Below, one piece after another: positions 6,930 to 51,399 of a stretch of DNA of 64,000 nucleotides (position 1 is its first letter; the number at the start of each line of letters is the position of its first letter). The DNA comes from Mobula hypostoma (Eukaryota): contig NC_086097.1 of assembly GCF_963921235.1 (NCBI RefSeq), positions 85,562,001 to 85,626,000 of the forward strand, given 5' to 3'. The notes below the pieces were generated by a model. The model saw only the letters and a list, made by a program, of their open reading frames with translations. It had not been told where the DNA came from and did not search any database. A program made the translations under genes and the position numbers.

Positions 6930-7200
6930 AGTGCAGCCGAGTGAGGCAGATGGAGAAACAGACGGGAGGGGTGTCCCAGCTGACCTGCTCAGGGCAGCAG
7001 CCTGAAGGAATAGGTGTATACCAATAGGTGAATACCCACCACTGCTTTATTTGCTTCATGGAAAGACCATTGTCAAAGTAAGAAGGGAGAGGAGTGCAGC
7101 AGGCAGGGAGGGGCCCTGCTGATACTCTAACCAATGGGGAGAAGAATCTCTCCTTATACACCTCACTTAAGGCCTTGCAGAAAGTCCTTAGAAACCTACA
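6930..7200 (+). pseudogene. gag: ERV gag C-terminal remnant
   Basis: Manual translation gives ADLLRAA...PTTALFASWKDH and SLYTSL, resembling class III Gag C-terminal motifs. It lies directly upstream of the protease. Confidence 0.4.
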
Positions 7201-7284
7201 GCAACAGATGACACCTTCCCGTTCCACTCGCGTAGTGGTGTGGCCAGGGCTCCCAGCACTGTTCAGCAACTTTTTTCTCATCTG

Positions 7285-8035
7285 GGAGACCTGAGGCCTT
7301 TTAGAATTATTGCAATACATTGGGGAAAGGAAAATGTAAAACGATGGGTGGCAATAGTCAATACCGGGGCTGAGCACTCTCATCATCCCAGGCGACCCCA
7401 CACTTTCATCCCGGGCGACCCCACATTTTTATCCCGGGCGACCCCACATTTTTATCCCGGGCGACCCCACACTTTTATCCCAGGCAACCCCACATTTTTA
7501 TCCCGGGTGACCCCACATTTTTATCCCGGGCGACCCCACATTTTTATCCCGGGCGACCCCACATTTTTATCCCGGGCGACCCCACACTTTTATCCCAGGC
7601 AACCCCACATTTTTATCCCGGGCGACCCCACACTTTTATCCCAGGCAACCCCACATTTTTATCCCGGGTGACCCCACATTTTTATCCCGGGCGACCCCAC
7701 ATTTTTATCCCGGGCGACCCCACATTTTTATCTCGGGCGACCCCACATTTTTATCCCGGGCGACCCCACATTTTTATCTCGGGCGACCCCACATTTTTAT
7801 CCCGGGCGACCCCACATTTTTATCTCAGGCGACCCGACACTTTTATCGCGGGCGACCCCAACAGGTGGAGAGGTCCCCAGGTGAGGAAACAAGGACTGGA
7901 AGGTCACTTATCCTGGCCCATGCTGTTACTGTAAGGGTGTATATCAGCTCAGAACAACCAGGACCTATGTCAGTGCTGGTCTCAGCATCACCCGAGTGCA
8001 TTTTGGGTATGAATGTGCTGAAAGGTAGGTCCATC
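7285..8035 (+). pseudogene. pro: ERV aspartic protease, inactivated and split by a minisatellite
   Basis: GDLRPFRIIAIHWGKENVKRWVAIVNTGAE..IIPGDP [repeat] IAGDPNRWRGPQVR...VLVSASPECILGMNVL, versus ERV-L-type DLRPF.V.VHWGKG...LLDTGSELTLIPGDP...VVISPVPECIIGIDIL. Catalytic D is replaced by N at 7360. Confidence 0.8.
7378..7860. repeat. 23-bp minisatellite (ccccacatttttatcccgggcga) x ~21
   Basis: Directly visible head-to-tail units with few variants and no spacers. Confidence 0.97.
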
Positions 8036-8036
8036 T

Positions 8037-8867
8037 AGAGGCAGAGCGAAGTTAAGATGGCGCTAAACGGCGACTCCCTTGCTTGCATTTTGGAAACAGC
8101 TCTACTTCCATCTTTAATATCTTTATTTTTCCCTTTCAGGGTTCTTTTGAAGACCCTGACCTGGAGTTTGGTTCGACTTCAGTTCTTTGCGGTAATGGGA
8201 CCCGTCCTCGGGGTTTCAGGACTGACCGTTGTTCGGCACGCTAAGGGTTCGGCCTGAGAGGCCAGCTCAGATTTGGAAGCCTAAGATTTCGGGGCTCTGG
8301 AAACGGGCGGATCGAGGGTCAGTGTCATGGCAGGAGACCCATGTGTCATCGGAGGAGTCAGAAAATCTACCTCTGCATGCCTAAGGACCCGGGATCTTTG
8401 CGATCTTTGGGAACAGAGCTCGGAAAAAGCGATGCAATGGACTTTTAACATTATAAACCAGCGAGTTGTTTGTTATGTCTCCCCGCTTGCTGGGAAAAAT
8501 GGAGACACCTCCTTCTCCCTTATTAGAGTGCCTGTAGTATGTTGAATGCTGGGTGAAACTCAAAGTCTTTGGGGTAACTGTAAGTCTGTGTCTTTGCTAT
8601 TGCTTTGCTCATGCTTGAGTGCTTGGTGATGGGTGCTGATGCTTTTACTTTGCTGGTGGGGTGAGGGGGATTGTTGTTTGCTGCCACTTACGTGCGGGAG
8701 GGAGTGGAGATTGGGGGGACTTTGGGATTCATATGTTTAACTGTCATTCATTCTTTGGGTCACTTCTCTGCTTTCATTGTTGTTTGCAAAGGAAAAGCAT
8801 TTCAGGATGTATATTGTATATATTTCTCTGACATTAATTTGGACCTTTGAACCTCTGAACCTTTGAA
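8037..8867 (+). mobile_element. Non-autonomous retroposon (aagatggcg head, LINE-like 3' tail) inserted in ERV pro-pol
   Basis: Begins gaagttaagatggcgctaaacggcgac and ends tttcaggatgtatattgta...ctttgaacctctgaacctttgaa (short tandem tail). ERV coding sequence resumes on both sides. Confidence 0.6.
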
Positions 8868-8879
8868 TATTTGAACCCT

Positions 8880-9490
8880 GCAGACCGATAGTTTTACTTT
8901 TGGGGTGTTGGAGCTGGCCAAGTGGAGACCCTCATAATCCCGCCTCTGACCCAAGGTGGTGAACATGAAACAGTTCCGCATCCCGGTGGCACCAAGAGAC
9001 CATGGAAACAGTGAATGTACTGTTAAAGAAGGGGTTATTCGGCCAGTAACGTCCCCCGTATAATAGCCCAGTGTACTGGTGCAGAAGGGGGATGAGACAT
9101 AATGAAAGACTTTAGGCAATTGAATAAGCATACCCTGTTCGTCACAGCAGCTGTCCTGGAAGTGGTGACCATTGTAGGAGACATAAAGGGTAGGGAAAGG
9201 AAACATTGGTAAACCGTAATGAATTTGGCCAATACTTTTCCATTCCCAAGTCCCAAGACCAGTTTGCATTTTCATTGGGCGGCAAACAATATACCTTTTG
9301 TCATCTTCTGCAGGGATAATGCACAACCTGACCTTGTGCCACGGCATTATAGCTGGAAACCTACAAGGGATCTCGCTTGACCCAAACATCTCGGTCTCCG
9401 ACTACTATTGCAGGGGTCCTTGGAGGAGATGGTGCAGGAGGCATTAGTCAAGCAGATTATCCCCCTGAGGGAGAGGGGATGGTCTATTTA
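8880..9490 (+). pseudogene. pol: ERV reverse transcriptase N-terminal half (frameshifted)
   Basis: Across frames: AKWRP, PKVVNMKQFRIP, EGVIRPVTSP/YNSPV, DFRQLNKHTLFVTAAVLEVVTIV, MNLANTF, QFAFSLGGKQYTF, LCHGII, LRERGWSI. These match the ERV-L-type RT order (NQKQYRIP, DYRKLN..AAVPDVV, DLANAFF, QFAFSWQGQQYTF). Confidence 0.8.
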
Positions 9491-12054
9491 AAAAAAAAAG
9501 GATGGGTTACTCCTGAATCCGAGGGGGACTAATATCACTGTGGGTGGGTTTGCTAGAGTTGTTCAGGAGCATTTAAACTAACTTAGCAGTGGGATGGGAA
9601 CCAGAGTAATAGTGCTGAGGGTGAGGTAGCTGGTTTACAAACAGTGGCAATGTGCAGTGTTAGCAAGGAGAAGCTGATGACAGGGCAAAACTACAGTCAG
9701 CAGGATGAGTTGCAAAGTGAAAGGAGGACAAAATCGAAAAGGGTGAATACAGGACCAAAGGTGTTATATTTCAAAGTGCACAGTATACGGAATAAGATAG
9801 ATGAACTTGTAGCGCAGTTACAGATTGGCACGTGGACATCACTGGATCATGGCTGAAAGAATATTATAGTTGGAAGCTTAATGTCCAATGATACACAGGG
9901 TGTTGAAAGGACAGGCATGTAGGCAGAGGGGTTGGCATGGTTCTGTTGGTAAAAAATGAAGTCAAATCATTAGAAAGAGGTGATATAGGGTTGGAAGGTG
10001 TTGAATCATTGTGGGTAGAACTAAGGAACTGCAAGGGTAAAAAGGCCCTGATAGGAGTTGTATACAGACCCCCAAAAATAGTAAGGATATGATCTACAAA
10101 TTACAACAGCGATACAAAATCAATGTCAAAAGGTCAATGTTGCAATAGTCATGGGGTATTTCAATATGCAGGTAGATTGGGGAAATTAGGTTCGTGCTAG
10201 ATCTCAAGAGGCAGAATTTCTAGGATGCCCTACCCTAGTTTGGATTTTGTGTTATGAACTGAGAGAGCTTAAGGTAAAGGAACCCTTAGGGTCAGTGATC
10301 ATAATATGATCAAATTTACACTGAAAATTGAGAAGGAGAAGCTAAAGTAATACATATCAGCAATACAGTGGAGTAAAGGGAATTACAGATGCATGAGAAA
10401 GGAGTAGGATATATACATCCCAAAGAGGATGAAGAATTCGAAATGCAGAATGACACAACCGTGGCTAACAATAGAAGTCAAAGCCAACATAAAAACCAAA
10501 GAGAGAGCATATAATAAAAATTAGTGGGAAGTTGGAGGATTTGGAAACTTTTAAGAAACAACAGAAGGCAACTAAAAAAGTCACAAAGAAGGAAAAGATA
10601 GAATATGAAGATAAGCTTGCCCATAATATTAAAGAGGAACCAAAAGTTTCTTCAGATACATAAAGTATAAAAGAGAAGCAAGAGTAGATATCAGACCACT
10701 GGAAAATGATGCTGGAGAGGTAGTAATGGGGGACATGGAAATAGCAGATTAACTGAATAAGTATTTTGCATCAGTCTTCACTGTGGAAGACACTAGCTGT
10801 TTGGTAGAAGTGTCAGGAGACAGAAGTGAGAGTAGCTGCCATTACTAGGGAGAAGATGCTTGGGAAACTGAAAGGTCTTATGGTAGATAAGTCACCTGGA
10901 CAAGATTGAGTAACTACACCCCGAGTTCTGAAAGAGGTAACTGAAGAGATTGTGGAGGCATTAGTAATAATCTTTTGAGAAACAATAAATTCTGGATAGT
11001 TCCAAAGCACTGAAAAATTGCAAATGTCACTCCACTCTTCAAGAAGGAAGAGAGGCTAAAGAAAGTAATTTATAGGCCAGTTAGTCTGACATCAGTAATT
11101 GGGAAGATGTTGGAGTTGATTTTTAAGGATGTGGTTTCAGGGTAGATGGAGACACATAACATAGGCTATAGTCAGCACGGTTTTCTTAAGGGAAAATCTT
11201 ATGGACAAATCTGTTGGAATGCTTTGAAGAAATGGACAAAGGGGAATCAGTGGATGTTGTGTACTTGGATTTTCAGAAAGCCTTTGACAAGGTGCTGCAC
11301 ATGAGGCTTCTTAACAAGTTAAGAGCCCGTGGTATTACAGAAAAGATACTAGCGTGGATAAAGCAGTGGCTGATTGACAGGAGGCAAAGAGTGGGAAAAA
11401 GGGAGCCTTTTCTGGTTGGCTGTCAGTGACTTGTGGTGTTCCACAGTGTTGGGACCGCTTCTCTTCATGTTATCGGTCAATGATTTGGATGATGGAATTG
11501 AAGGCTTTGTGGCCAAATTTGCAGATGATATGAAGATAGGTGGTGGGACAGGTAGATTTGAGGAAATAGAGAGACTACAGAAAGACTTAGGAAGATTAGG
11601 AGAATGGGCAAAGAAGTGGCAGATGGAGTACAGTGTCAGGATGTATATGATCATGCATTTTGGTAGAAGAAATAAAAGGGGTAGACTACTTTCAAAATTG
11701 AGAGAAAATTCAGAAATCTGAGGTGCAAAGAGTCTTGGAAGTCCTCGTGCAGGGTTCTTCAAAGGTTAAATTGCAGGTTGAGTTGGTGGTGAGGAAGGCA
11801 AATGCAATGTTGACATTCATTTTTAGAGGACTAGAATATAAAAGCAAGGTCATAATGCTGAGGCTTTGTAAAGCACTGGTGAGGCCTCACTTGGAGTATT
11901 GTAAGCAGTTTTATGCCCCTTATCTGAGAAAGGATGTGCTGACATTGGAGGGGGTTCACAGCAAGTTCACGAAAATGATTCCGGGATTGAAAGGCTTGTA
12001 ATGTGAGAAGTGTTTGATGGCTCTGGGCCTCTGCTCACTGGAATTCGGAAGAAT

Positions 12055-15000
12055 AAAAACAAAGAAACATAGAAAACCTACAGCACAATACAGGCCCTGC
12101 GGCCCACAATGCTGTGTCGAACATGTACTTACTTAGAAATTACCTAGGGTTACCCATAACCCTCTATTTTTCTAAGCTCCATATACCTGTCCAGGAGTCA
12201 CTTAAAAAACCCTATTGTATCAATCTCCACCCCCATTGCCGGCAGCCCATTCCACTCATTCCCCACTCTCTGCATAAAAAAACTTACCCTGACATCTCCT
12301 CTGTACCTACTCCCTAGCACCTTAAACCTGTGCTATCTCGTGTAAGCTATTTCAGCCCTGGGAAAGAACCTCTTACTAACTACACGATCAATGCCTCTCA
12401 TCATCTTATACACCTCTATCAGGTCACCTCTCATCCTCTGTCGCTCCAAGGAGAAAAAGCCGAGTTCACTCAAACTATTCTCATAAGGCATGCTCCCCGA
12501 TCCAGGCAACATCCTTGAAAATCTCCTCTGCACCCTTTCTATCGTTTCCACATCCTTCCTGTAGTGAGGTAACCAGAACTGAGCACAGTACGCCAAGTGG
12601 GGTCTGACCAAGGTCCCATAAAGCTGTAACATTAACTCTTGGCTTTTAGACTCAATCCCACGATTGATGAAGGCCAATGCACTGCATGCTTTCTTAACAA
12701 CAGAACCTGCACAGCAGCTTTGAGTGTCCTATGGACTCGGACCCCAAGATCCCTTTGATCCCCCACACTGCCAAGAGTCTTACCATTAATACTATATTCT
12801 GCCATCATATTTCATCTACCAAAATGAACCAACTCACACATCTGGGTTGAATTCCATCTGTCACTTCTCAGCCCAGTTTAGCATCCTATTAATGTCCTGC
12901 TGTGACATCCCCACAACCTTTGTGTCATCAGAAAATTTACTAACCCATTCTCCACTTCTTCATTCAGGTCATTTATAAAAGTCACGAAGAGTAGGGGTCC
13001 CAGAACAGATCCCTGAGGCACACCACTGGTCACCAACCTCCATGCAGAATATGGCCCATCTACAACCAATCTTTGCCTTCTGTGTGCAAGCCAGTTCTGG
13101 ATCCACAAAGCAATGTCCCCTTGAATCCCATGCCTCCTTACTTTCTCAATAAGCCTTGCGTGGGGTATCTTATCAAATGCCTTGCTGAAATCCATATACA
13201 CTACATCTACTGCTCTTCCTTCATCAATGTGTTTAGTCACATCCTCAAAAAATTCAATCAGGTTCGTAAGGCACGACTTGCCTTTGACAAAGCCATGCTG
13301 ACTATTCCTGATCATATTATACCTCTCCTAATGTTCATAAATCCTGCCTCTCAGGATCTTTTCCATTAACTTATCAACCACTGAAGTAAGACTCATTGGT
13401 CTATAATTTCCTGGGCTATCTCTACTCCCTTTCTTGAATAAGGGAATAACGTCTGCAACCCTGCAATCCTCCGCGACCTCTCCTGTCCACATTGATGATG
13501 CAAAGATCACTGCCAGAGGCTTAGCAATCTCCTCCCTCACCTCCCACAGTAGCCTGGGGCACATCTCGTCTGGTTCCGGTGACTTATCCAACTTGATGCT
13601 TTCCAAAAGCTCCAGCACATCCTCTTCCTTAATGTCTATATGCTCAAGCTTTTCAATCCACTGTAAGTCATCCCTACAATCGCCAAGATCCTTTTCCGTA
13701 GTGAATACTAAAGCAAAGTATACATTAAGTACCTTTGCTATCTCATCCGGTTCCATACACACTTTTCCACTGTCACACTTGATTGGTCCTATTCTCTCAC
13801 GTCTTATCCTCTTGCTCTTCACTTACCTGTAGAATGCCTAGGGTTTTCCTTAATCCTGCTTGCCAAGGCCTTCTCATGGTCCCTTCTGGCTCCCCTAATT
13901 TCATTCTTAAGCTCCTTCGTGCTAGCCTTCTATTCTTCTAGATATCTATCATTACCTAGTTCTTTGAACCTTTTGTAAGCTTTTCTTCTTGACAAGATTT
14001 TCAACAGCCTTTGTACACCACAGTTCTTGTACCCTGTCTCATTGGAATGTACCTATGCAGAATGCCACACAAATATCCCCTGAATATTTGTCACAGTTCA
14101 GCTGAACATTTCCCTGAGAACATCTGTTCCCAATTAATGCTTCTAAGTTCCTGCCTGATAGGTTCATATTTCCCCTTACTCTAATTAAACATTTCCCTAA
14201 CTTGTCTGTTCTTGTCCCTCTCCAATACTATGGTAAAGGAGGTAGAATTGTGATCACTATCTCCAAAATGCTCTCCCACAGAGACCTGACACCTAACCAG
14301 GTTCATTTTCCAATACCAGATCAAGTACAGCCTCTCCTCTTGTAGGCTTATCTACATGTTGTGTCAGGAAACCTTCCTGAACACATCTAACAAACTCCAC
14401 CCCATCTAAACCCCTTGCTCTAGGGAGATGTCTATCAATATTTGGGAAATTAAAATTCCCTGTTATTATTTCATCTTTCCAAAATCTGCTCCTTGATGTC
14501 CCTCTTACTACTGAGTGGTCTATAAAGAACACCCAGTACAGTTACTGACGCCTTCCTTTTTCTAACTTCTACCCACAGAGACTCAGTAGACAATCCCTCC
14601 ATGACTTCCTCCTTTTCTGCAGGTGTGACACTATCTCTGATCAGCAGTGTCATGCCCCAGCTCTTTTGCCTCCCTCCTTATCTTTTCTGAAACATCTAAA
14701 GCCTGGCACTCTAAGTAACCATTTCTGCCCCTGAACCGTCCAAGTCTCTGTAATGGCCACAACATCATAGCTCCAAGTACTGATCCACACTCTAAGCTCA
14801 TTCGCTTTGTTCATGATGCTCCTTGCAGTAAAATAGACACATCTCAAACCATCGGTCTGAGCACATCCCTTCTCTATCATCTGCCTATTCCCCCTCTCAT
14901 ACTGTCTCCAAGCTTTCTCTAATTATGAGCCACCGCCCCTTCCTCCGTCTCTTCAGTTTGGTTCCCACCCCCCCAGCAATTCTAGTTTAAACTCTCCCCA

Positions 15001-16211
15001 GTAGCCTAAGCAAATCTCCCGTCCAGGATGTTGGTCCCCCTCGGATTCAAGTGCAACCCGTCCTTTTTGTACAGGTCACACCTGCCCCAAAAGAGGTCCC
15101 AGTGATTCAGAAATCTGAATCCCTGCCCCCTGCTCCAATCCCTCAGCCACACATTTATCCTCCACCTCACTCTATTCCTATATTCACTGTCACATGGCAC
15201 AGGCAGTAATCCTGAGATGACTACCTTTGTGGTCCTGCTTCTCAACTTCTTTCCTAACTCCCTGTAGTCTGCTTTCAGGACCTCCTCCCTTTTCCTGCCT
15301 ATGTTGTTGGTACCAATAGGTACCATGACCTCTGACTGTTTTCCTTCCCACATCAGGATATCGTGGATGCGATCAAAAACATCCCAGGACCCTGGCACCT
15401 GGGAGGCAATCTACCATCTGTGTTTCTTTCCAGCATCCACAGAATCGCCTGTCTGACCCCCTAACTACAGAGTCCCCTATCACTGCTGCCATCCTCTTCC
15501 TTTCCCTCCCCTTCTGAGCCACAGGGCCAGACTTTGTGCCAAATGCGTGGCCACTGTTGCTTCCCCCAGGTAGGCCAACTCCCCCAACAGTACTCAAAGA
15601 GGAGTACTTATTGTTAAGGGGGACAGCCACTGGGGTACTCTGTAGCATCTGACTCTTGCCCTTCTCTCTCCTGACTGTTACCCACTTACCTGTCTCCCCA
15701 GGTCCCAGCGTGACTACCTACCTAGAGCTCCTCTCCATCAGCTCCTCACTCTCCCTGATCAGACGAAGGTCATCGAGGTGCAGCTCCAGTTCCCTAACAC
15801 GGATCCCTAAGGAGCTGCAGCTCGACACACCTGGCGCAGATGTGGCCGTCTGGGAGGCTGGGAGACTCCAGGACCTCCCACATCTGATACTGAGCACAGA
15901 ACACCGGCCTCACACACATACTTCCTGTTTCTATTCTTCACAGGTAACCTACCTTGCCTTGACCCTTTGAGCCAAAGCCCTCCTACTCTGTCTACCCCTA
16001 CTCCGTCACCTGCTCCTCTGACACCCGATCTATAAATCTGTCTCCTTTTAAACTCTTCGCGCTGCCTAACTCGCTGACATCCGCATGCTTGTGTAATCGT
16101 CCCTCGATCAAACCACTGAAGGAAAAAGCTATCTCCTTTTAAGCTCTTCAAGCTGGTCTAACTCGCTGACATCCATGCACTTGTGCAGTCGTCCCTTGAT
16201 CAAACCTCATC
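12055..16211 (-). mobile_element. Near full-length CR1 LINE (5' UTR, ORF1 Zn-finger/esterase, ORF2 APE-RT, 3' UTR)
   Basis: ORF1 from about 15919 (MCVRPVFCAQYQMW...HICARC, VIGDSVVRG, GTNNIG, DGLHLN). ORF2 pieces [41 protein letters not shown]. Flanked by an aagaat duplication (12049-12054 and 16212-16217). Confidence 0.9.
15006..15919 (-). pseudogene. CR1 ORF1: zinc finger/leucine zipper plus SGNH esterase (frameshifted)
   Basis: GDS, GxN and DGLH blocks in ORFs 15373-15648 and 15006-15398. Confidence 0.8.
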
Positions 16212-16520
16212 AAGAATGAGGGGTAACATCATTGAAACACACCGAATGTTGAAAGACCTCAACAGAGTGGATGTAGAGAGGATGTTTCCTATAGTAGGGG
16301 AGTCTAAGACCAGTGGACACAGCCTCAAAATAGTTTTAGAATGGAGATGAGGAGGAGTAACTTCAGTCAGAGAATGGTGAAATGTCAGGAGGCCAAGTTA
16401 TTGGGTATATTTGAAGGTCACGTGTTGTTGTGCCATTTATCGGGCGCTTCCCTGAATAACTCCTACAAAAGCTTCTTTACAACCTGTTTATAAGGCTCTC
16501 ATATAACCTCAATAAAAGCA

Positions 16521-17453
16521 ATGGTTAAAAGGAAAAATTGTGGAAATCCTACTGGCGCTATCACTGCTGGCCCTGCACTTCCGGGAGCATCTGGAGTTGA
16601 GGGACGCGGGAGCAATGGTGATGAGGCCTGCTCGTCGGATGGTTCCTCTGAGCCTGTGGAAGGTCCAAGGGTGGCAGCAGGGCGACGTGGTGGCCTCGCG
16701 GCCGCGATTCATGAGTTGACCGATGCAGTCCGGACTTTAACCGGTAGGATGGACAAATTCGAGAATCATTTAGACCTTATCATGCAAGAATCTAAGGAAA
16801 TAAAGCAGGCTTTGGAATCTTTAAATTTGCGAACTCAGGATTTAGAAAATAATATGAAGGATATTGTGAATAGATTACAAAGCCTGGAAAAAGAAAAAGA
16901 TTCCTGGAGGATTGAGAAAGTAAAAATAATGGACAAACTGGACTCCCTTGAAAACTATAGCAGAAGAAATAATATCAAAATAGTGGGTTTAAAAGAGGGA
17001 TTGGAAGGAAGAGACGCAGAGACTTTCTTTCAAGAATGGATCCCCAAAGTTCTGGGGGAAAAGCATTTTGACAAAGAATTAATTATAGAAAGAGCCCACA
17101 GGACTTTAAACCCCCGATCACCTCCAGAGCAAAGGCCGTGCTCTATACGCTTTTTGAAGTATCAGGATAAACAAAAAGCATTACAAGCTGCTGCAATAGA
17201 GGCCAGAGAGAGAAATGGCCTACTAGAGTTTTAAGGGGGAAAGATATTCCTCTTTCCAGATATTAGTGTGGCCTTGTTAAGAAAAAGGAAAGACTTTGAC
17301 TTAACAAGGAGGTTATTAAAGAATAAAGGTCTTCAATATTCTTTATTATATCCAGCAAAACTGAGAATTACTCTGTTGGATGGAGGGAGGAAATTTTTTA
17401 CTAACCCCCAGGAGGTGACAAACTTTATTCAAAAAATATCTGAGACATCGTGA
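16521..17453 (+). pseudogene. L1 ORF1p (coiled coil + RRM + CTD), broken near 17234
   Basis: LENYSRRNNIKIVGLKEGLEG...IERAHR...RFLKYQDK, then RKRKDF...YSLLYPAKLRI. Confidence 0.9.
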
Positions 17454-18254
17454 TTCAGAATATTCTTCTGGAACAAGAGGCCTAGAAAGATGTATCTTGG
17501 ACAAAATATATGAAGACATTTATTTGATTTTCTTTATTAATATAGATTAATTATAACAACATTATAATCTTGAACTTCGAATCTGTATGATTATGGATGA
17601 AGACTGTGATTTAAAATATTGATTATGTATGGTCTTTTTGAATTATACTACTTAGGAACTATATAGTTCATCTAATTTTGTTATAACTAGTATAAATAGC
17701 TTTGATTATATAGATGTCATCTTTTGATATGTTTAATTTTTGGTATGATGGATATGTATTGTCATAGTATTTAGTGTTATATTTAGTAAGTCTCTTTGAA
17801 TTCTATTCTTTATTCGGATATATTGCTATATTAATGATATTTACTTTCAATACTATAGATTATTAGATATTTAGTAATAACGGGTGTGGAATATAATTTA
17901 TTTTTACAGATGTTTAATTAAGGGGTTATTGGGGGAGTGGATAATTTTTTCGTCTCTTTTTAAAAAAAAGATCAATTATGTTATATGTTAAAGAATGCCC
18001 ATCTTTAGTGCGATGTTTATCGGACCCCACAGTAAGAGGGGTTAAGGTGCCGTGGATTTGGAGCGCCAGTTGGGAGGGTTTTTCTCCCTTTCTTTTTCTT
18101 TTTTTTTCTTTTTTTTCTTTCCTCTTTGGTTTCTTTTCTATTTTCTATACTCCATTGAGAATGGCACCAAATATCTCAGAGTCACTCAAAGAAGTGGGAT
18201 TAATTTTTACTTTTTTTGTGGGCAGGATTTATCAACCGATAAAATCAGGTAACT

Positions 18255-21200
18255 ATGAATAGAGCAATTAAATTTTTGTCTTAATGTTAATGGGATAAAT
18301 GGACCAATAAAAAGGAAAAAGGTCCTGGCATATCTTTAAAAAATCATATTGATATTACCTTTCTTCAAGAAACTCATCTTACAGTGACAGAACATAACAA
18401 ATTAAAGAGAGGATGGGTTGGTCAAGTAATAGCATCCCCCTTTAATTCTGAAGCCAGAGGAGTGGCAGTACTGATAGGGAAGAATTTGCCAGTGAAAGTG
18501 GAGAGTACTATCACATATCCAGCCGGGAGATTTGTTATGGTCAATTGTCAAATATATTCAGAATCCTGGACACTTTTGAATTTATATGCCCCCAATTATG
18601 ACAATGAGAAATTTATCCAAAATATTTTTTGAAAGTTGCTCAAGGATATGAAAATATCTTAATGGAGGGGATTTCAATTTTTATCCGGATCCAATTTTAG
18701 ATAGATCAGTTGAAAAAGTCGTGAAGGTCAGGGCAGCAAAAACCACCCTGGCCTTCATGAAGGACCTGAATATAATAGATGCTTGGAGATGGCAGCATCC
18801 AAGGGAAAGAAACTACTCTTTCTATTCAAAACAATATGATTCCTACTCTAGAATTATTTCTAATATCAGGGTAAATTCAAACAGAATATGCCGCTAGACT
18901 ACTATCGGACCATTCACCTTTAATTTTATCAATTGAAATGCCTGATAAACAAAAAACATTATATAGATGGCGTTTTAATCCTTTGCTGTTGAAAAGACCA
19001 GAGTTTTGCAGTTTTATTAGGCCTCAAATAGAATTGTTCTGTGAGACGAACTCACCCTCTATTGCCAATAAGAGGAGAAGATGGTGACGCGACACAGCGC
19101 GCACGGCCGCTCTGAAATGATATCATATTTGTGAAGTAGGATGCCGTGCACAATCTTGATTCCATGGAAACAGCCGTGACAAGCATGGAGGAACATCTGG
19201 AGAAACTTCTGAAATAACTACTTCGCTGCCGCTACTACTGTCCGATCGAGAATCTCCGGAGGGGGAAGCCCCAAATCCTTGGCTTTGCCTATTGCCTGTT
19301 GCTCGGTGTTGGAGGCTCGAAGTTTTCGGAAGGACTCAAGCGTCGGCTGTGGTCGGGTGCTTCCAAGGTGCTGCATCGGCAAGTTTGCGGTGCTGGAGGC
19401 TCATGGCAGGAAGAGAGTTTCTCTTCCTTCTACCATCTGAGTGAGAAGATGGGACATTTGAGAGACTTTGAGACTTTTTTTTACCGTGCCCATGGTCTGT
19501 TGTAACTATATGTTATAATTATGTGGTTTTTGTTAGTTTTTCAGTCTTGGTTTGTCTTGTGTTTCTGTGATATCATTCTGGAGGAACATTGTATCATTTC
19601 TTAATGCGTGCATTACTAAATGACAATAAAAGAGGACTGCGTGTCCTCATAATCTAATCTAATCTAATTATGGGACACATTAAAAGCATACTTAAGAGGA
19701 CGGATAATTGGATATGTTAAGGGTATAAAAAATAAATATTAACAGAATTAAAAGAATTGGAGAAAGAAATAACACAATTAGAAAAAGATTTTCAGAATTT
19801 AACAACGGAGGAAAATTATGAAAAATTAATAAATAAAAAATTAGAATATAACACAAAACAATCCTATAGAATAGGAAAAATGATACTAAGGTCAAAACAA
19901 CAATATTATGAATTAGGAGAGAGAACCCATGAAGTACTATCTTGGCAACTGAGGGTGGAAGAAACCTCTAGAACAATGAATGCGATTCAAACAGAGGAAG
20001 GTAAGATTTCATATAAACCAAAAGAAATAAATGATACTTTTAAGCAGTTCTATTCGGAACTATATAAATCAGAATCAGTGGGTGACTCACTGGAAATTGA
20101 TGATTTCTTGTCTAATTTACAACTTCCCAAATGAGTCAACAAGATCAGGAAGAATTGAATGCTCTTTTTTCCAGGGATGAAATTGAAAGAGCCCTAGGCT
20201 TGTTACAGGCTAATAAATCACTGGGAGATGATGGTTTCCCCCCTGAATTTTTGGAGAATTTAAGGATCAATTAATGCCCCTTTTTATGAGCATTGTGACT
20301 CAGGCTGAGGAGACCCATACTCTACAGGAATCCTTTTCAACAGGAATTATTACATTAATTCTTAAGAAGGATAAGGATCCGCTAAAACCAGCATCTTATA
20401 GGCCTATCTCACTTTTAAATGCGGACTATAAAATTATAGCAAAGGCATTGATTGGCTAATAGACTAGCTCAATATCTCCCAAAATTAATTAAATCCGATC
20501 AAACAGGATTTATTAAAAATAGACAATTATCTGATAACATTGGCAGACTATTGACTATATTACATTTAGCTAGGACGAAGGTGGACCCAACTGTAGCAGT
20601 GGCTTTAGATGCTGAAAAAGGCCTCTGATAGACTTGAATGGGATTTTTTATTTAAAACAATGGAAAAATTTGGTCTAGGCCAAATATTCATAAATTGGAT
20701 AAGAGCACTTTACCATCAGTTTAAGGCCAAAATAATTACGAACGGGCAGATTTCACCAGTTTTCTCTCTACATAGGTCTAGTAGACAAGGTTGCCCATTA
20801 TCTCCAGCTCTATTTGTTCTGGCAATAGAGCCATTGGCTGAGGCTATTAGATGGGATCCAGATATAAAGGGGTTTAAAGTGGCCCAGGAAGAATATAAAA
20901 TTAATTTATTTGCTGATAACATTTTAGTATATTTGGCTGACCCGGCCGGCTCTTTGTTAAGACTTAGGGCCTTGCTGGACAATTATGGTATAGTCTTGGG
21001 ATATCAAATAAATTGGAATAAAAGTGAAATTTTACCTTTAGGTAGACGAGACTATGCCCAATATCAATATGACACTCAGTTTAGATGGGTTAAATTCAAC
21101 ATGAAATATCTGGGGATTAAGTTTAATCGTAATTTGGATGACCTTCAGAAACTTAATTACCTCCCCTTGCTGTGGAATGTCGAGGAGGACCTACGTAGGT

Positions 21201-21915
21201 GGATAAACCTTCCCACCACACTGATAGGCAGGGTAAACTGTATAAAAATGAAGATAATGCCAAGACTTCAGTATTTTTTTCAGTCTTTACCTATCCCATT
21301 ATCCAATAATTTTTTTAAGATTCTCAATGGACATATTCGTTTATTTTTATATTGGGTAAAATATCTAGAATCTCCATGGAAAAATTGACCTGGGACTATA
21401 AATTGGGAGGGTTAAAATTACCAGATTTAAAAAAAATATTATTGAGCTGCACAAGCACACTTTATTGCTTCTTTTTTTGATGAGACAACTATTCCTTCTT
21501 GGGTTACAATTGGCTTACATATGGTAGAAGAGATGGCAGAAGGATTTATAGATAAATGGGACTCCAAATTAATTAAGAAGAAAACAAATTTATATCTGGG
21601 AAAAAAATTAAACAACTTATGGGTCTAAAAAAAGGAATATCCTCAAAGACACCTCTATCTCAGAACAGATTAATACCCATGACTCTGGGTAATAAATTTC
21701 TAGTCACCTGGTATCAACATGATATCAGGCGCATTAAAGATTGTTATAATCAGCAGAAGCAATTTATGTCTTTTGAGGGACTTAAAACTAAATATAATTT
21801 ATCTAATAACACATTCTTCTGTTATCTCCAATTACGATCTTTTTTGAGGGACTGTTTGGCTCCATCACTGGCCCTACCAAGGTGCTCAGACATGGAGATT
21901 CTAATTCCCTTATTA
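18255..21915 (+). pseudogene. L1 ORF2p (APE endonuclease + RT), disrupted, C-terminus missing
   Basis: FLQETHL, LNLYAPN, LWDTLKAYLRG, SYRPISLLNADYKI, SRQGCPLSPALF, LFADN, MKYLGI. Confidence 0.9.
19071..19667 (+). mobile_element. SINE-like non-autonomous retroposon inserted in L1 ORF2
   Basis: GC/CpG-richer block with an aagatggtg head, a 3' hairpin gaggac-tgcgt-gtcctc and a (taatc)n tail. L1 ORF2 resumes immediately after it (LWDTLKAYLRG). Confidence 0.75.
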
Positions 21916-22397
21916 TAAGCTAGTTTCTTTAATTTGTATTTTAAACTGACTCTGAGAGCTGGATGCCTACTCTTCTTTTTCTTTTTTTTCTCTTTTCTTT
22001 TTTCTCCTCTCTTTCTTTCCTCTGTCTTTTATGTTTTTTTTCTCCCTCTTTTTTCTAAATGAGGGGAGATGGTGTCGGGATAGGTGTTTTTTTCCCTCTC
22101 TCGGACTTATTAATGTATTTGAATTAATTTTTTTCAATATGTATTAATTGTTGTATTAATTGAGTCCTTATATTCTTTAAAAAATTAAATAAAATATTTT
22201 TAAAAAAGTTATTGGGTATATTTAAGGCAGAGCTTGATAGGTTTTTGATTAATCAGGGTATGAAAGGATACACGGAGAAGGCAGGAATTTGGGGCTGAGA
22301 GGGAAAATGTATCTGCCATGATAAAATGACAGAGCAGACTCGATGGGTCAAATGGCCTAATTCTGCACCTAGATCTTGTATTCTTAATGCCTATTAA

Positions 22398-22795
22398 TCA
22401 AAGATTCCAAGGTTCATTAATTATCTCGGTATGTATGCAGTACAGAACTCTGAGATCCACCTTCTCCAGATAGCCACGAAACAAAGGAAACCATGGAGGT
22501 CTTTTAAAGAAAAGTATCAACTCCCCCCCCACATGAAGAAACTTATAAATTGCCCCAAATTTAAATCGCAATGTCAACAACAGCATCAAACCACACCCCC
22601 CCCCACAGAAATACAAATTGGTGAAATGCAAGAACATCAAACCCCAACCCCCCCCACACACACACACACAAAAGAACTACAAATTGTACCAAAGTTAAAT
22701 TGCGCTGACACCAACCAAAACGAGTGAAAACACAGAATATAAAAGACATAAAAGTGTCCATTCCAATCCATAAATCACAGAACTTCAGTCACATG
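22398..22795 (-). mobile_element. SINE-like retroposon 3' portion
   Basis: tcaaagattccaaggttcattaattatc...gtatgcagtacagaactctgagat...ttctccagatagcc matches the element starting at about 42915. Confidence 0.55.
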
Positions 22796-22811
22796 CTTTG
22801 GGGGGGGGGGT

Positions 22812-23050
22812 GATCCCGTGGGAAAACATATGAGACACCCAGCATTGGCAGGTCACTGATTATCATGTAGGTGCCCACACTTCATGTGACATGGAGGAGG
22901 CTGCATGCAACACTTACACAGGAAAGGTAAGGGTACAACAACCAACTAGGTGGCCAGAGAGGGAGTGGCCTGGGGCAGGGCAATAAGTGGTGGGTGGCAC
23001 TTTGAGGAGAACAGGGAATAGTGTGTCTGAACACCCAACAATTAATTGAA
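22812..23050 (+). pseudogene. pol: ERV RNase H C-terminus fused by deletion to the integrase C-terminal tail
   Basis: PWENI*DTQHWQVTDYHVGAHTSCDMEEAACN (RNase H HVxAH...N motif), then VRVQQP and GQGNKWWVAL*GEQGIVCLNTQQL, resembling the ERV-L IN tail (KVWV.PP...EGKGNTEWVV). Confidence 0.6.
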
Positions 23051-23089
23051 ATAGAGTGATAGTGTGCTTCCCTTCATTGCAGAAATGCC

Positions 23090-23846
23090 CATCACCACAA
23101 CAGCAATGGTGGTCATGACTAATACCTTTCTCAGAATGTTGTATAAAGTATACTTATCGAAGTGTTGGGTGTGCTCCTGGACTCTAACACTCAGTCATGG
23201 GAGCACTGATCACCATCCCTCTGAATGACACTGAATACTAGACATGAAATGAATTCCTCAAGAACTTTTCATCTAAGACTGTCAATGGGACAGTAAAAGG
23301 GGGACAGTTTAAGGGATGGGACGCACCAGCATGTAATCAGATGTTGTGATGTTGTGTTATATGTATATCACATATACAATCTGGCTAAACACCCCACCCA
23401 CAAGTCAAAACATCAGAAAATGGTATCACAGAGGCCAATCAGTTCTGGATGAAAGTATGGAGCTCCCCAGTTATCATCTTTGATGGCCTGAGAAAGAATA
23501 GAATGACGTTGGATTATATCCTGGAAAGGAAGGAGGTACTTGTGCCATAATAGGCCGGGTCTGTTCTACTTATACCTCCAATGAGTCAGAGAATATAACA
23601 GATTTGACCATATCCAACAGTCGGTAGATAAGATACGTAAGGTGAGAGATCAGTTCCATAAAAGTGAGGTAGTTGTTGGCCCTTTGCAGCACCAGGAGGT
23701 TGGTGGGCTGCTGGAGTACACTGGGGTATTACTACATCCATTTTGCTTTTGTGCTTAGTAGTTTGGCATTTTGCTTGTAATATGGTGGGGCATCTGTGGG
23801 GGTTGTATAAAAGCCTGTGGACCGGATGTAATGGGTTGCAACATTC
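23090..23846 (+). pseudogene. env: ERV env remnant (gamma-type TM: ISD, CX6C, membrane anchor)
   Basis: From 23497: NRMTLDYIL-[1-nt frameshift]-EGGTCAIIGRVCSTYTSNESENIT. Downstream: GGWWAAGVHWGITTSILLLCLVVWHFAC (hydrophobic anchor). A pyrimidine-rich cag acceptor-like site lies at about 23070-23082. Confidence 0.75.
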
Positions 23847-23857
23847 AAGGAGTGGAA

Positions 23858-24340
23858 TATATTGTAAAGGGTTCATCTTTGTGCATGGCAAATGTCTCAT
23901 CACCACCATGTTCTGGAATGTAACAGAACTTTGATTGCTACTGTGGAGTACAACCATGAGAATGCAATACTACCATGGGAACATGGAAGTTAGTTGAACA
24001 CAGGGGTGCGAATCGTGAACAGTGATGATTGGTTCTGATTCTGTGGTTTGGGCTGGTGTTAATATATTAGTCCACTTATTGCAGAATTTCATATCAGTAG
24101 AGACGGTATAAAAGTAGAGTGATTGGAGGGCCTAGGAGTAGCTATTCAAGGCCTCACTGACAGGCTGGTCATGACTAGAGTCATGGATTGAGTGGGAGGT
24201 GTGCTGCATTGAGAGGGGCCCGTGCACACTTAGATAAGTATTTTAATGCTTGCTCTTTTCTATCCATAATCATAGTTTTAGGTAGATAATTGGATTTTGT
24301 GTCTTTTCTGCCTATCTGAGCCAGATCCGAGAACCTATTG
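23858..24340 (+). mobile_element. Candidate ERV 3' LTR
   Basis: Follows the PPT-like aaggagtgga (23847-23856) right after env and contains gtataaaag (about 24106). Boundaries are uncertain and there is no partner LTR. Confidence 0.4.
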
Positions 24341-24602
24341 TTTTAATGGAGCATCCTGCTCATGATTTTCTGATTTCCAACATCATGACACATCCTATTT
24401 TACTCGTGCCCTCTTCTAATTTCTGCTTTCTCCCATTTCATTTCCTAACCCGCCCTTCTCTTGCCGGATTCCCCTACCTGCTGACTCTATATACCCTTCA
24501 CAAGATAACCTCTAATGATCATAGTCATGTTGATTAATGAAACTTTCCCACAGCTGCATTTGTCTTGTTTAAGTATGTTTGCAAAAGATGACATGACAAA
24601 GT

Positions 24603-38806: not shown

Positions 38807-40402
38807 CAGACCCCATTTCCAGAAAAGTTGGGATATTTTCCAAAATGCGATAAAAACAAAAATCTGTGATATGTTAATTCACGTGAACCTTTATTTAACT
38901 GACAAAAGTACAAAGAAAAGATTTTCAATAGTTTTACTGACCAACTTAATTGTATTTTGTAAACATACACAAATTTAGAATTTGATGGCTGCAACACACT
39001 CAACAAAGGTTGGGACAGAGGCATGTTTATGATTGTGTTACATCACCTTTCCTTTTAATTACACTTTTTAATCGTTTTGGAACTGAGTATACTAATTGTA
39101 GTAGATTTGCAATTGGAAATTTTGTCCATTCTTGCTTGATATAAGACTTCAGCTGCTCAACAGTCCGTGGTCTCCGTTGTCTGATTCTCCTCTTCATGAT
39201 GTGCCATACATTTTCAATAGGAGATAGATCTGGACTGGCAGCAGGCCAGTCAAGCACACGCACTCTGTGTCTACAAAGCCACGCTGTTGTAGCCCGTGCA
39301 GAATGTGGTCTGGCATTGTCCTGCTGAAATAAGCATGGACGTCCTGGGAAGAGACGTCGCCTTGATGGCAACATATGACTCTCTAAAATCCTAATATACG
39401 CCTCAGAGTCAATGGTACCTTCACATACATGCAACTCACCCATGCCATGGGCACTGATGCGCCCCCATACCATCACAGATACTGGCTTTTGCACCTTTCA
39501 CAGATAACAATCTGGATGGTCATTTTCATCTTTGGCACGAAGAACTCGACGCCCGTTTTTTCCGAAAACTAGCTGAAATGTGGACTCATCTGACCACAGT
39601 ACACAGTTCCACAGTCTTTCGGTCCATCTGAGATGAGCTCGGGCCCAGGGAACTCGCCGGCATTTCTGCATAGAGTTGATGTATGGCTTCCTCCTTGTGT
39701 AATAGAGTTTCAAGTTGCATTTCTGGATGCAGCGACGGACTGTGTTGAGTGACAATGGTTTTCCAAAGTACTCCCGAGTCCAGGTGGCTACAATTGTCAC
39801 AGTAGCATGATGGTTTCTTAGGCAGTGCCGCCTGAGGGCTCGAAGATCACGCGCATTAAACAGTGGTTTCCAACCTTGCCCTTTATGCACTGAGATGTCT
39901 CTGAATTCTCTGAATCTTTTCACAATATTATGTACTGTAGATGTTGAAAGACCTAAATTCTCTGCAATCTTGTGTTGAGAAATGTTCCTTTTGAACTAAC
40001 AATTCGCTCACGAATTTTGGCACAAAGGGGTGAGCTACGACCCATCCTTGCTTGCAAAGGCTGAGCCTTTGATGGACGCTACTTTTATACCCAGTCATGA
40101 TACCTCACCTGCTACCAATTAGCCTGCTTAATGTGGAGTCTTCCAAACCGGTGTTACTTGAATATTCTGTGCAATTTTCAATCTTATTTTAACTCTGTCC
40201 CAACTTTTGTTGAGTGTGTTGCAGCCACCAAATTCTAAATTTGTGTGTATTTACAAAAAACAATTAAGTTGGTCAGTAAAACTATTGAAAATCTTTTCTT
40301 TGTAGTTTTGTCAGTTAAATAAAGGTTCACGTGAATTAACATATCACAGATTTTTTTTTTGCATTTTGGAAAATATCCCAACTTTTCTGGAAATGGGGTT
40401 TG
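38807..40402 (-). mobile_element. Tc1-family (DD34E) DNA transposon with ~210-bp IR/DR-type TIRs
   Basis: TA|cagaccccatttccagaaaagttggga ... tcccaacttttctggaaatggggtttg|TA. Inner direct repeat caacaaaggttgggaca. Confidence 0.95.
39027..40045 (-). pseudogene. Tc1 transposase (DD34E) with a frameshift near the 5' end and an internal stop at about 39498
   Basis: ATG at 40045 (MGRSSPLC...). WSDES, then FQQDNARPH...SPDLSPIENVW with 34 residues between D and E (counted). Confidence 0.92.
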
Positions 40403-41917: not shown

Positions 41918-43122
41918 CACAAGGATAAGAAGTTTGAAAATCTCTTCATTGGTGTCATTGGGTACTCAGTAAGCACAGAGCTGACGGGTTAAGAAGCATC
42001 GTGGTTTCAATATCCAGTAAAATTTGGAAGCTGTCAAGTTTGTTCGAAGTCTAATGGATTGAATGCACAACGACAACAAAGATGAAGACTTGGGAGCCCA
42101 GGAAGGACAATTACTCTCAGCTTCCTAGGGTCTGGCATGGGGAAAAATACAGATGGGTGTTGCTCTTGACCTCAGATACAACCAGTCGCCTCACTGGGTT
42201 TGTGCCATGCTGGATATTGGATGTGAACAGGACTGAGTTAAAAGGCTCATTGGTAAGCCACCTGAGGAATTACATAGTACAAGGAGTCACCCCTTCAGGA
42301 GAGGTGAGGAAAGGGGAAAAACAGAGAGCAGGAACACTGCAACTGAGTTTCTCTACTTGCATCAACTTTATGTTTAGGTTTCAATGTATGTTCAGGGCTA
42401 TTAACAAACAGATTAGTGCAATAAAATTAAAATTGGTTTAAAGACAGTTATTGTAATTGGACCCAATCTCGCTCAAGTCCAATGAAAACACTGACAATGG
42501 GAGACTTTCCAGCTTTAATTAAGAATATATAGCCCAGTCAGTGACATGTAGATATTAGTCTTCAGCTAATCAACTAATTAAAACATTACAGTTTAACACC
42601 CATTCATTAAACACTGAACCAGTTTGTCTGAACATAGCAAAGAGCTTACATAAATCTGTTTACCCAAGAGTAATATCTAATTGAACTTTTACTGTAGGTC
42701 AGACTCTAGTAACATTAACCCAAAAGCACCGATAACCTAAAGGTAAATACAAATAAATTTGCTAGTAACATAGTGCTGTAATTATACAGGGTACTTGTAT
42801 TTACACCAACACAGTTGTTTTTAATCTAGTGTATTTTCACACAATTTTACATCATATTTTACAATATATTTTATACAAAGCGGCTATATTTTTAAATCCA
42901 CACTTTTAAACTTAGGTTGAAAGTACGTATGCAGAATACAACTCTGAGATTTGTCTTCTCCAGATAGCTATAAAATACAGAAAACCATTGAAGTAGTTGA
43001 ACGAAAGACATCGAATCCTCCCACCCAACAACAGGAATTCTGCAGATGCTGGAAATTCAAGCAACACACATAAAAGTTGCTGGTGAACGCAGCAGGCCAG
43101 GCAGCATCTCTAGGAAGAGGTG

Positions 43123-43160
43123 CAGTCGACGTTTCAGGCTGAGACCCTTCGTCAGGACTA
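43123..43160 (-). ncRNA. Minimal type I hammerhead ribozyme motif in the 3' pLTR
   Basis: Minus strand: tagtc-CTGACGA-AGGGTCTCAGCCT-GAAA-CGTC-gactg. Stem I agtc/gact, conserved core CUGANGA/GAAA, GUC cleavage triplet, palindromic ACGT in place of stem III. Confidence 0.75.
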
Positions 43161-43446
43161 ACTGAAGGAAGAGTGAGTAAGGGATTTGAAAGTTGGAGGG
43201 GGAGATCCAAAATGATAGGAGAAGACGGGGGGGGGGGATCGAGCCAAGAGCTGGACAGGTGATAGGCAAAAGGGATATGAGAGGATCATGAGACAGGAGG
43301 TCTGGGAAGAAAGACAAGGGGTGGAGGGGACCCAGAGGACGGGCAAGGGGTATATTCAGAGGGACAGAGGGAGAAAAAGGAGAGTGAGAGAAAGAATGTG
43401 TGTATAAAAATAAGTAACAGATGGGGTACGAGGAGGAGGTGGAGCA

Positions 43447-46400: not shown

Positions 46401-46491
46401 AGCCGAAGAAATTACAGATGGGGAGCAGTGAGAGATGGTTTCACTGAACTCCCGTCGAAGAGAGGATCTAAACTTCTTCGTTGTAGGCATC
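43447..46491 (-). pseudogene. Penelope-like polyprotein (N-terminal domain, RT, GIY-YIG), several frameshifts and stops
   Basis: Collinear ORFs 45804-46568, 45217-45807, 45119-45316, 44002-44994 and 43447-43773. Likely start MPTTKKFRS. Confidence 0.9.
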
Positions 46492-46623
46492 ACCGGAAGA
46501 GGCTTCACAGTAGTGAATTTAAACGCAAACAACAGGAATTCTGCAGATGCTGGAAATTCAAGCAACACACATCAAAGTTGCTGGTGAACGCAGCAGGCCA
46601 GGCAGCATCTGTAGGAAGAGGTG

Positions 46624-46659
46624 CAGTCGACGTTTCAGGCCGAGACCCTTCGTCAGGAC
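46624..46659 (-). ncRNA. Minimal type I hammerhead ribozyme motif in the 5' pLTR
   Basis: Minus strand: gtc-CTGACGA-AGGGTCTCGGCCT-GAAA-CGTC-gactg. Confidence 0.7.
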
Positions 46660-47384
46660 AGCAGGCCAGGCAGCATCTCTAGGAAGAGGTACAGTCGACG
46701 TTTCAGGCCGACATGAAAAGAAAAAGAAACAGAAACTCACAACCCCCAACACCCCCCCATTTCCTCCCTCACTAAAAAGTTAACAGATCACCCACATGAA
46801 GAAACAACAGCAAGATCTTCAAACCCCAAACTTCCAGCCTGCCAATCAGCAACAAGAGAGAATGGGTGAGAACACGAGAAAAAGCATAGAACTAAGAGAG
46901 GCCAATATGAAGTACAGTCCAATTCTTAAATCTCAGAATCTCAGTAACATCTCTGAGGGCAGTGACTCGAACCAGTGACCACAAACCAAATGTGAAGAAG
47001 CTATCTTCTTTTCTCTGTATCTTAAAGGTGAGAACGAGGATACATGATTGTAATCTTATTTTATACATGCAGTGTTAAATCTCCATGATATATTGTTTAT
47101 TTCACATGGTTATTGCATCGTATATCTAGGGGGAGCATAACACTTAAAAATGCCACTGAGTTCCAGCTCATCTTCTAACCTCTTTTGCTTGGAACAGGTG
47201 CTGCTTCTCCTCCAGTATTGATTCATTATTCAAATACACTCCATAATATCATGACCGAGTTTGTCCAATGAGCACATAAATAAGTTTCCCAGCCACTATC
47301 ACTAGATAATGACAAGGAATATTAAGAAAGACTGAACCCGATACATGCAAATCCTCCAGCTAAAGATCAGGTAATTATTTCTTT

Positions 47385-51330: not shown

Positions 51331-51399
51331 TTCAATTAATCCTCTGTGTATCCCAGGAAGCAGAAAGAACACATTCTCAGTGAAATGCACCTTACACAA

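Follow-up and report, generated by a model that had tools for sequence, protein, structure and literature searches.

Remnants of an ERV-S-like endogenous retrovirus with a gamma-type env in the genome of the ray Mobula hypostoma

Organization of the proviral remnants

The window analyzed here is a 64,000-nucleotide stretch of the 3.48-Gb genome of the ray Mobula hypostoma (NC_086097.1, 85,562,001–85,626,000; coordinates below are window-relative). It holds the remnants of an endogenous retrovirus (ERV), which an earlier inspection of the letters alone (the original prediction) had described as a hidden class III provirus with a gamma-type env. When the stretches named there were read in three frames, remnants of the gag tail, protease, reverse transcriptase (RT), RNase H, integrase tail, and env were found on the + strand in retroviral order, as had been claimed. 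Each remnant is broken by stops and frameshifts, and none of 12 single window frames matches a retroviral Pfam family. Based on these data and those presented below, the locus very probably contains a dead, 5′-truncated member of a multi-copy ERV family that is ERV-S-like (class III, ERV-L-related) and has a gamma-type env; the family would have entered the germ line and spread in an old burst as proposed below.

A stingray Gag-Pol model and a sawfish Env served as references for scoring the window pieces, with 40 codon shuffles of each piece as the null. The scores were 43 bits for env, 48.5 bits for RT, 45 bits for protease, and 30 bits for the RNase H/integrase tail, and none of these was reached by any of the 40 shuffles. 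The gag tail was not significant in this comparison, as 25 of 40 shuffles reached its score against the stingray protein; it is backed by a paralogue gag frame (E = 2e-11) and by 65–73% DNA identity to paralogues.

The layout of the copy (Table 1) departs from the original prediction in several details. Two of the predicted nested insertions (8037–8867 and 9491–22,811) were recovered with slightly shifted borders, whereas the third (7401–7860) is a minisatellite that grew in place. Nor is the larger interval a mere insertion to be excised, because the pile of long interspersed nuclear elements (LINEs) found there also replaced ~1 kb of pol, no piece of which was found inside 9491–22,818. The nesting order of the pile was derived from alignments that jump each gap, and the LINE family names are putative assignments from open reading frame (ORF) content. 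The protease motif read as DTG is NTG in the window, and AAVPDVV is AAVLEVV. RT is indeed present at 8880–9490, but its catalytic motif is deleted, and RNase H and the integrase tail, predicted at 22,812–23,050, are both there, with the end of the former fused to the latter. The env had been recognized as a transmembrane subunit (TM) only (23,497–23,830); the TM stands, and a surface subunit (SU) upstream of it had been missed. A 210–260-bp SU deletion at 23,341/23,349 is private to the window copy (0 of 14 other copies measured). The polypurine tract (PPT) and long terminal repeat (LTR) proposed from 23,847 onward were both located there. No 5′ LTR or 5′ gag was found in the window or in the 20 kb upstream. 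The window copy is without the 5′ LTR, the primer-binding site (PBS), most of gag, and ~2 kb of pol, and is predicted to be functionless now.

Table 1. Features of the proviral copy and of the repeats inserted in it
Feature	Position	Strand	Remarks
gag 3′ tail	6930–7235	+	ends in TAG 7233–7235; 5′ boundary uncertain, ~6930–6980
Protease N-terminal half	7236–7400	+	frameshifted; active-site codon altered
In-place minisatellite	7385–7860	+	20.7 × 23 bp, amplified from the protease's own IPGDP codons
Protease C-terminal half	7861–8032	+	71–80% identity to paralogues
Inserted repeat, LINE- or short interspersed nuclear element (SINE)-like	8033–8877	+	845 bp; short tandem tail; clean insertion, no viral bases lost
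Protease–RT linker and RT fingers/palm	8878–9490	+	frameshifted; catalytic motif deleted
Nested LINE pile	9491–22,818		stands in place of ~1 kb of pol
CR1-type LINE in pile (putative)	~9502–22,390	+	split by CR1-type and L1/Tx1-type insertions
CR1-type LINE in pile (putative)	12,055–16,211	−	inside the + strand CR1-type LINE
L1/Tx1-type LINE in pile (putative)	16,382–22,205	+	contains a repeat at ~19,070–19,670
Repeat closing the LINE pile	22,400–22,810	reverse	
RNase H C-terminal piece	22,819–22,914	+	
Integrase C-terminal tail	22,921–23,060	+	zinc finger and core deleted, fused to RNase H at 22,914/22,921; without dUTPase
env signal peptide and SU	23,085–23,460	+	CWVC at ~23,163–23,174
env TM remnant	23,461–23,830	+	immunosuppressive domain (ISD), degenerate CX6CC region, membrane anchor; family-shared 103-bp heptad deletion present
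PPT	23,846–23,857	+	
3′ LTR	23,858–24,353	+	496 bp

Paralogues and family features

DNA searches of the genome were made with two queries, the RT part and the 3′ part of the element, and 40 loci were fetched. Many places were hit by both queries. RT is present in 30 of the 40 loci, and the part equivalent to 22.8–23.8 kb lies downstream on the same strand in 20 of these 30; the same linkage was seen in 12 of 20 loci picked on RT alone. In linked loci, the two parts are collinear and typically 1.5–2.5 kb apart. One natural family copy extends from LTR to LTR over 5.7 kb and is likewise dead, with stops and deletions. These paralogues confirm the original assumption of a single element, to which the 3′ LTR and env belong together with the gag tail, protease, RT, and RNase H/integrase tail.

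Family copies have the layout LTR, tRNA-Ser PBS, gag, in-frame TAG, pro, RT, RNase H, integrase, env, PPT, and LTR. The LTRs are ~500 bp long with TGT…ACA ends, and among the four copies in which both ends can be read, two have an exact 5-bp target duplication and two a partial one (4/5 and 3/5 bases). In all nine paralogues scored, the PBS matches the host tRNA-Ser(AGA) at 10–11 of the first 13 bases. The column at the gag end holds a stop codon in 13 of 17 copies (TAG in 11, TAA in 2), and single-frame gag-pol continuity around this stop was seen in locus L039. The family gag matches a stingray Gag that is named Fv1-like (E to 1e-25) and lacks a Cys-His (CCHC) box, and no dUTPase match was found in the family. 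Pfam searches with 28 paralogue frames returned only RVT_1, RVP, and TLV_coat, all below threshold. The set of markers, that is, the Ser PBS, TGT…ACA ends, 5-bp duplications, in-frame gag stop, absence of dUTPase, and gamma-type env, is the ERV-S profile. Five stingray gene models whose Gag falls in the same clade (P0328, P0329, and P0332–P0334) have been automatically named Fv1-like.

The family Env comprises a signal peptide, a CXXC motif near the SU N-terminus, an ISD, a CX6CC motif (degenerate in the window copy), and a membrane anchor. Its TM profile matches syncytin-1, p15E of murine leukemia virus (MLV), and filovirus GP2, bearing out the predicted gamma type, and Pfam TLV_coat scores above the cut-off in a sister copy. 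The nearest Envs among proteins are those of Hypanus, Pristis, and Amblyraja; nearest relatives from rays agree with the cartilaginous-fish host that the original prediction had suspected. Full-length Env models close to the family env exist for Pristis (421 aa) and Amblyraja (412 aa; P0339 and P0341) and might belong to young proviruses or have been domesticated.

On several contigs, the same genome holds two or more additional class III families (L081, L084, L093, and L099–L109); they are less decayed and carry a homologous gamma-type env, and one sister-family copy has a Ser-type PBS (16/18). Near-identical sister-family copies at L096–L098 (contigs C162, C123, and C140) contain a tandem-amplified RT catalytic-motif region, resembling the protease minisatellite of the window.

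RT phylogeny, spread, and age

Among PDB chains, the RT profile scored higher against foamy virus RT (54 bits) than against MLV RT (42 bits) or lentiviral or HERV-K RTs (30–35 bits), with no Ty3 among the best 60 matches. The best library matches of the profile were stingray, caecilian, toadfish, bichir, turtle, and crane proteins. A word-indexed protein search with one RT frame and a scan of viral contigs with the stingray protein gave no match.

Three RT trees were built, the first from 79 rows and the second and third from 38 and 44 rows chosen from these 79 plus four virus records. The family forms one clade in all three, with a Shimodaira–Hasegawa-like approximate likelihood ratio (SH-aLRT) support of 99 in the quick first tree and support of 100/99 in both careful trees. 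Throughout, stingray proteins and two sister families of the host group with it inside the ERV-L/XtERV-S assemblage. In the third tree, the ray clade has a support of 98/97 and sits in a 100/99 clade with a mouse ERV-L-like protein (P0176) and an XtERV-S-like protein (P0186). P0186 matches the XtERV-S motif positions at a constant offset. P0176 clusters with mouse proteins and has a dUTPase, and we take it to be ERV-L-like. At the sequence level, the grouping of the family RT with ERV-L/S class III elements is thus supported, and the predicted class III pol is upheld. The approximately unbiased (AU) test rejected a grouping of the ray clade with a virus record of 10,688 nt (p = 3e-50); from its length and ORF sizes, we take this record to be snakehead retrovirus (SnRV). 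A family RT fragment scored 107–123 bits to ERV-L/S anchors versus 40 bits to the same putative SnRV record. In the protein set, precomputed Pfam annotation also assigns to an unnamed class III-like Pol of 1374 aa (P0037) a dUTPase domain along with thymidylate kinase and thymidine kinase domains.

The family copies share deletions. In the integrase core, 11 of the 16 copies measured lack ~370 bp, with a near-identical junction. In the first TM heptad, a frameshifting deletion of 103 bp, with the same junction and length, is found in 14 of 24 copies, including the window copy (two of the 14 form a local duplicate pair). Both deletions lie between short direct repeats. All four combinations of the two deletion states were found, which would reflect recombination between co-packaged genomes. 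The shared deletions suggest copying in trans. Deleted copies are described for XtERV-S in parts of PMC8278194, and env loss with intragenomic spread appears as a known pattern in sections of a review (PMC10536682).

Kimura two-parameter (K2P) distances of seven LTR pairs range from 0.11 to 0.28. A tree of 31 copies is star-like, with a median tip of 0.15, and copies that share a deletion form no supported clades in it; L030 and L036, ~2.7 Mb apart on C1, are a supported pair (100/100) and likely a local duplication. Allowing one mismatch, a 22-base LTR motif was counted 54 times (control, 0); given this divergence, the LTRs may number a few hundred. The window locus, with the same private breaks and LTR-flank junction, was found in a second organism at 1–2% divergence and partly in a third, and hence is far older than their split. 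The shark rate used by Han 2015 (2.2e-10, according to part of PMC4422223) gives ~560 Myr for K = 0.25, which is implausible, and a mammal-like rate gives ~55 Myr. The family is therefore likely tens of millions of years old or more, with an absolute figure that hinges on the rate. The sequencing-run search listed no RNA dataset, which is uninformative on expression, and one possible RNA run yielded only short, divergent pieces of other copies.

We propose that a virus of this type likely infected the ray germ line, and that one old burst of copying followed, largely as defective genomes packaged in trans. By analogy with gammaretroviruses and XtERV-S, Gag-Pol would have been made by read-through of the gag stop, and cells would have been entered via a disulfide-linked SU–TM Env. 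As for the shared deletions, RT may have switched templates at short repeats and so produced a genome without the integrase core and one with a frameshifted Env, both mobilized by helper copies, and co-packaged genomes probably recombined. The window copy would descend from the Env-frameshifted form. Later losses would have removed the 5′ end and portions of pol and SU, the minisatellite would have grown, and LINEs would have accumulated.

Some observations weigh against this interpretation. The loci were picked by similarity to the window, and their counts are not a random sample. The PBS, 5′ LTR, and target duplication were read in paralogues and not in the window copy itself, and the PBS carries a 1–2 base insertion relative to the tRNA complement. 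HERV-S, HERV-L, gamma, Gypsy, and named foamy rows are absent from the RT trees, and the family rows are single-frame fragments that fill 18–41% of the columns. An AU test did not reject joining these short fragments to epsilon-side rows (p = 0.07). Placement outside Gypsy, gamma, and epsilon elements, as originally predicted, accordingly held for the separation from epsilon rows in the three trees but not in that test, nor was there a gamma or Gypsy row to compare. The star tree is unable to show deletion-sharing copies as a clade, and recurrent deletion at the same short repeat remains as an explanation.

Several alternatives bear on these results. That the 6.9–9.5 kb and 22.8–24.3 kb parts are two different elements lying 13 kb apart by chance could draw on the 13.3 kb of LINEs between them and the ~1 kb of pol missing at the junction. 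This objection fails with the linkage of both parts in 20 of 30 RT-bearing loci, where they are collinear; the same ray-specific grouping was obtained from both parts. The two-element reading is largely refuted, and we find it scarcely credible. A variant, in which two copies of the same family stand in register at the window locus, is formally possible. Membership in the SnRV-like lineage of the elephant shark (CmiERV lineage I) is slightly less remote, though still very improbable: parts of Han 2015 (PMC4422223) describe an env-bearing elephant shark lineage that clusters with SnRV, and parts of Chen et al. (bioRxiv 10.1101/2021.11.23.469661) term anamniote class III elements SnRV-related, but the ray clade groups with ERV-L/XtERV-S and not with the putative SnRV record. 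Membership of an SnRV-like clade was rejected on the AU test, with that record identified from its length and ORF sizes. A Ty3/Gypsy retrotransposon was rejected as well, given the PDB result, top library matches to vertebrate ERV proteins, and a gamma-type env; the trees hold no Gypsy row. So was an element of the mammalian ERV-L type, with a dUTPase after integrase and no env, given the env and the absence of a dUTPase match.

Concerning the mode of spread, the deletions might have arisen repeatedly after insertion, at the short direct repeats that flank both of them, in a family that spread only as intact, re-infecting virus. The lack of supported clades among copies with the same deletion fits this scenario. 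Yet one junction recurs in 14 of 24 copies for env and, near-identically, in 11 of 16 for integrase, and the SU deletion of the window is private; neutral loss after insertion is not expected at one junction so often. We therefore consider repeated deletion improbable and prefer copying of defective genomes in trans.

Relation to known elements

The combination of a class III pol with a gamma-type env is already published for HERV-S, XtERV-S, and ERV-SA.a-Ppe, and stingray RefSeq holds gene models of sister lineages, so novelty had been overrated in the original prediction. The copy is inert and the gene combination known; the gain is in range and detail. According to parts of Yedavalli et al. 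2021 (PMC8278194), XtERV-S of Xenopus tropicalis shares with the ray family an ERV-L-related gag-pol, a tRNA-Ser(AGA/TGA) PBS, TGT…ACA ends, a 5-bp duplication, an in-frame gag stop, YIDD, the lack of a Cys-His box, a gamma-type TM, CXXC near the SU N-terminus, and internally deleted copies. XtERV-S is described there as intact and recent; its LTR measures 705 bp, its gag stop is TGA, and a dUTPase-like segment is predicted in it. The ray family, by contrast, is old, with an LTR of ~500 bp and TAG as the stop, lacks a dUTPase, and makes up a clade of its own in the RT trees. HERV-S, compared by description only, has a primate host; sections of Vargiu et al. 2016 (PMC4724089) place it in the HSERVIII supergroup with a class III pol, a class I env related to PABL/PRIMA41, and no dUTPase, and its Ser primer (given in part of PMC5210030) is as in the ray family. 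Mouse ERV-L (the P0176 cluster with Mus musculus members) and HERV-L share the RT clade, an Fv1-like Gag, YIDD, and the 5-bp target duplication but carry a dUTPase and mostly lack env. The nearest RT and Gag-Pol relatives are the Hemitrygon akajei models XP_072911374.1, XP_072891825.1, and XP_072898008.1, which have the same protease, integrase-tail, and Gag features but represent sister lineages and are automatic annotations that may skip stops.

ERV-SA.a-Ppe, an anamniote element with a class III Pol and a gamma-type Env in the portion of Chen et al. (bioRxiv 10.1101/2021.11.23.469661) available to us, could be compared by description only. We read "Ppe" as Pristis pectinata, which the paper text does not name, and an Env of Pristis pectinata is among the nearest TM relatives of the family. 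ERV-SA.a-Ppe may be the ray family, a sister, or neither. The same portion reports gamma-type Envs in six cartilaginous fishes. In parts of Xu et al. 2018 (PMC6001957), class III elements belong to a clade whose hosts span all major vertebrate lineages, and HERVS/L-like and SnRV-like elements are separate clades in a section of PMC4977317. The accessible parts of PMC10699275 and PMC12287698 hold nothing specific to the ray family. No description of the family was found in the literature, of which the supplements of Chen et al. may contain the element.

The presence in rays of the ERV-L/ERV-S branch, source of the mouse restriction gene Fv1, is hereby firmly documented with all of the ERV-S markers, adding a fish data point to the question of whether class III retroviruses carried a gamma-type env from early on. 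The shared deletions would be clear fossil evidence that defective retroviral genomes spread in the germ line. A bolder proposal, which we regard as rather unlikely, is that rays hold an undescribed deep ERV-L/ERV-S branch, distinct from the SnRV-like elements of sharks, and that a single homologous gamma-type env persisted in this branch through three successive families. If true, the association of class III pol with a gamma-type env would be old and stable and not the product of repeated capture, and the env-less mammalian ERV-L would be derived.

Elsewhere in the window, a Tc1/mariner-like transposon (38,853–40,360) has inverted repeats of 168 bp (96%), and its transposase frames lie on the − strand. 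Flanked by direct repeats of 132 bp, a Penelope-like element (43,027–46,711) has − strand frames of RT and GIY-YIG-like type. At 48,437–51,331, a CR1-type LINE has long open frames and is 93% identical to a copy inside locus L043.

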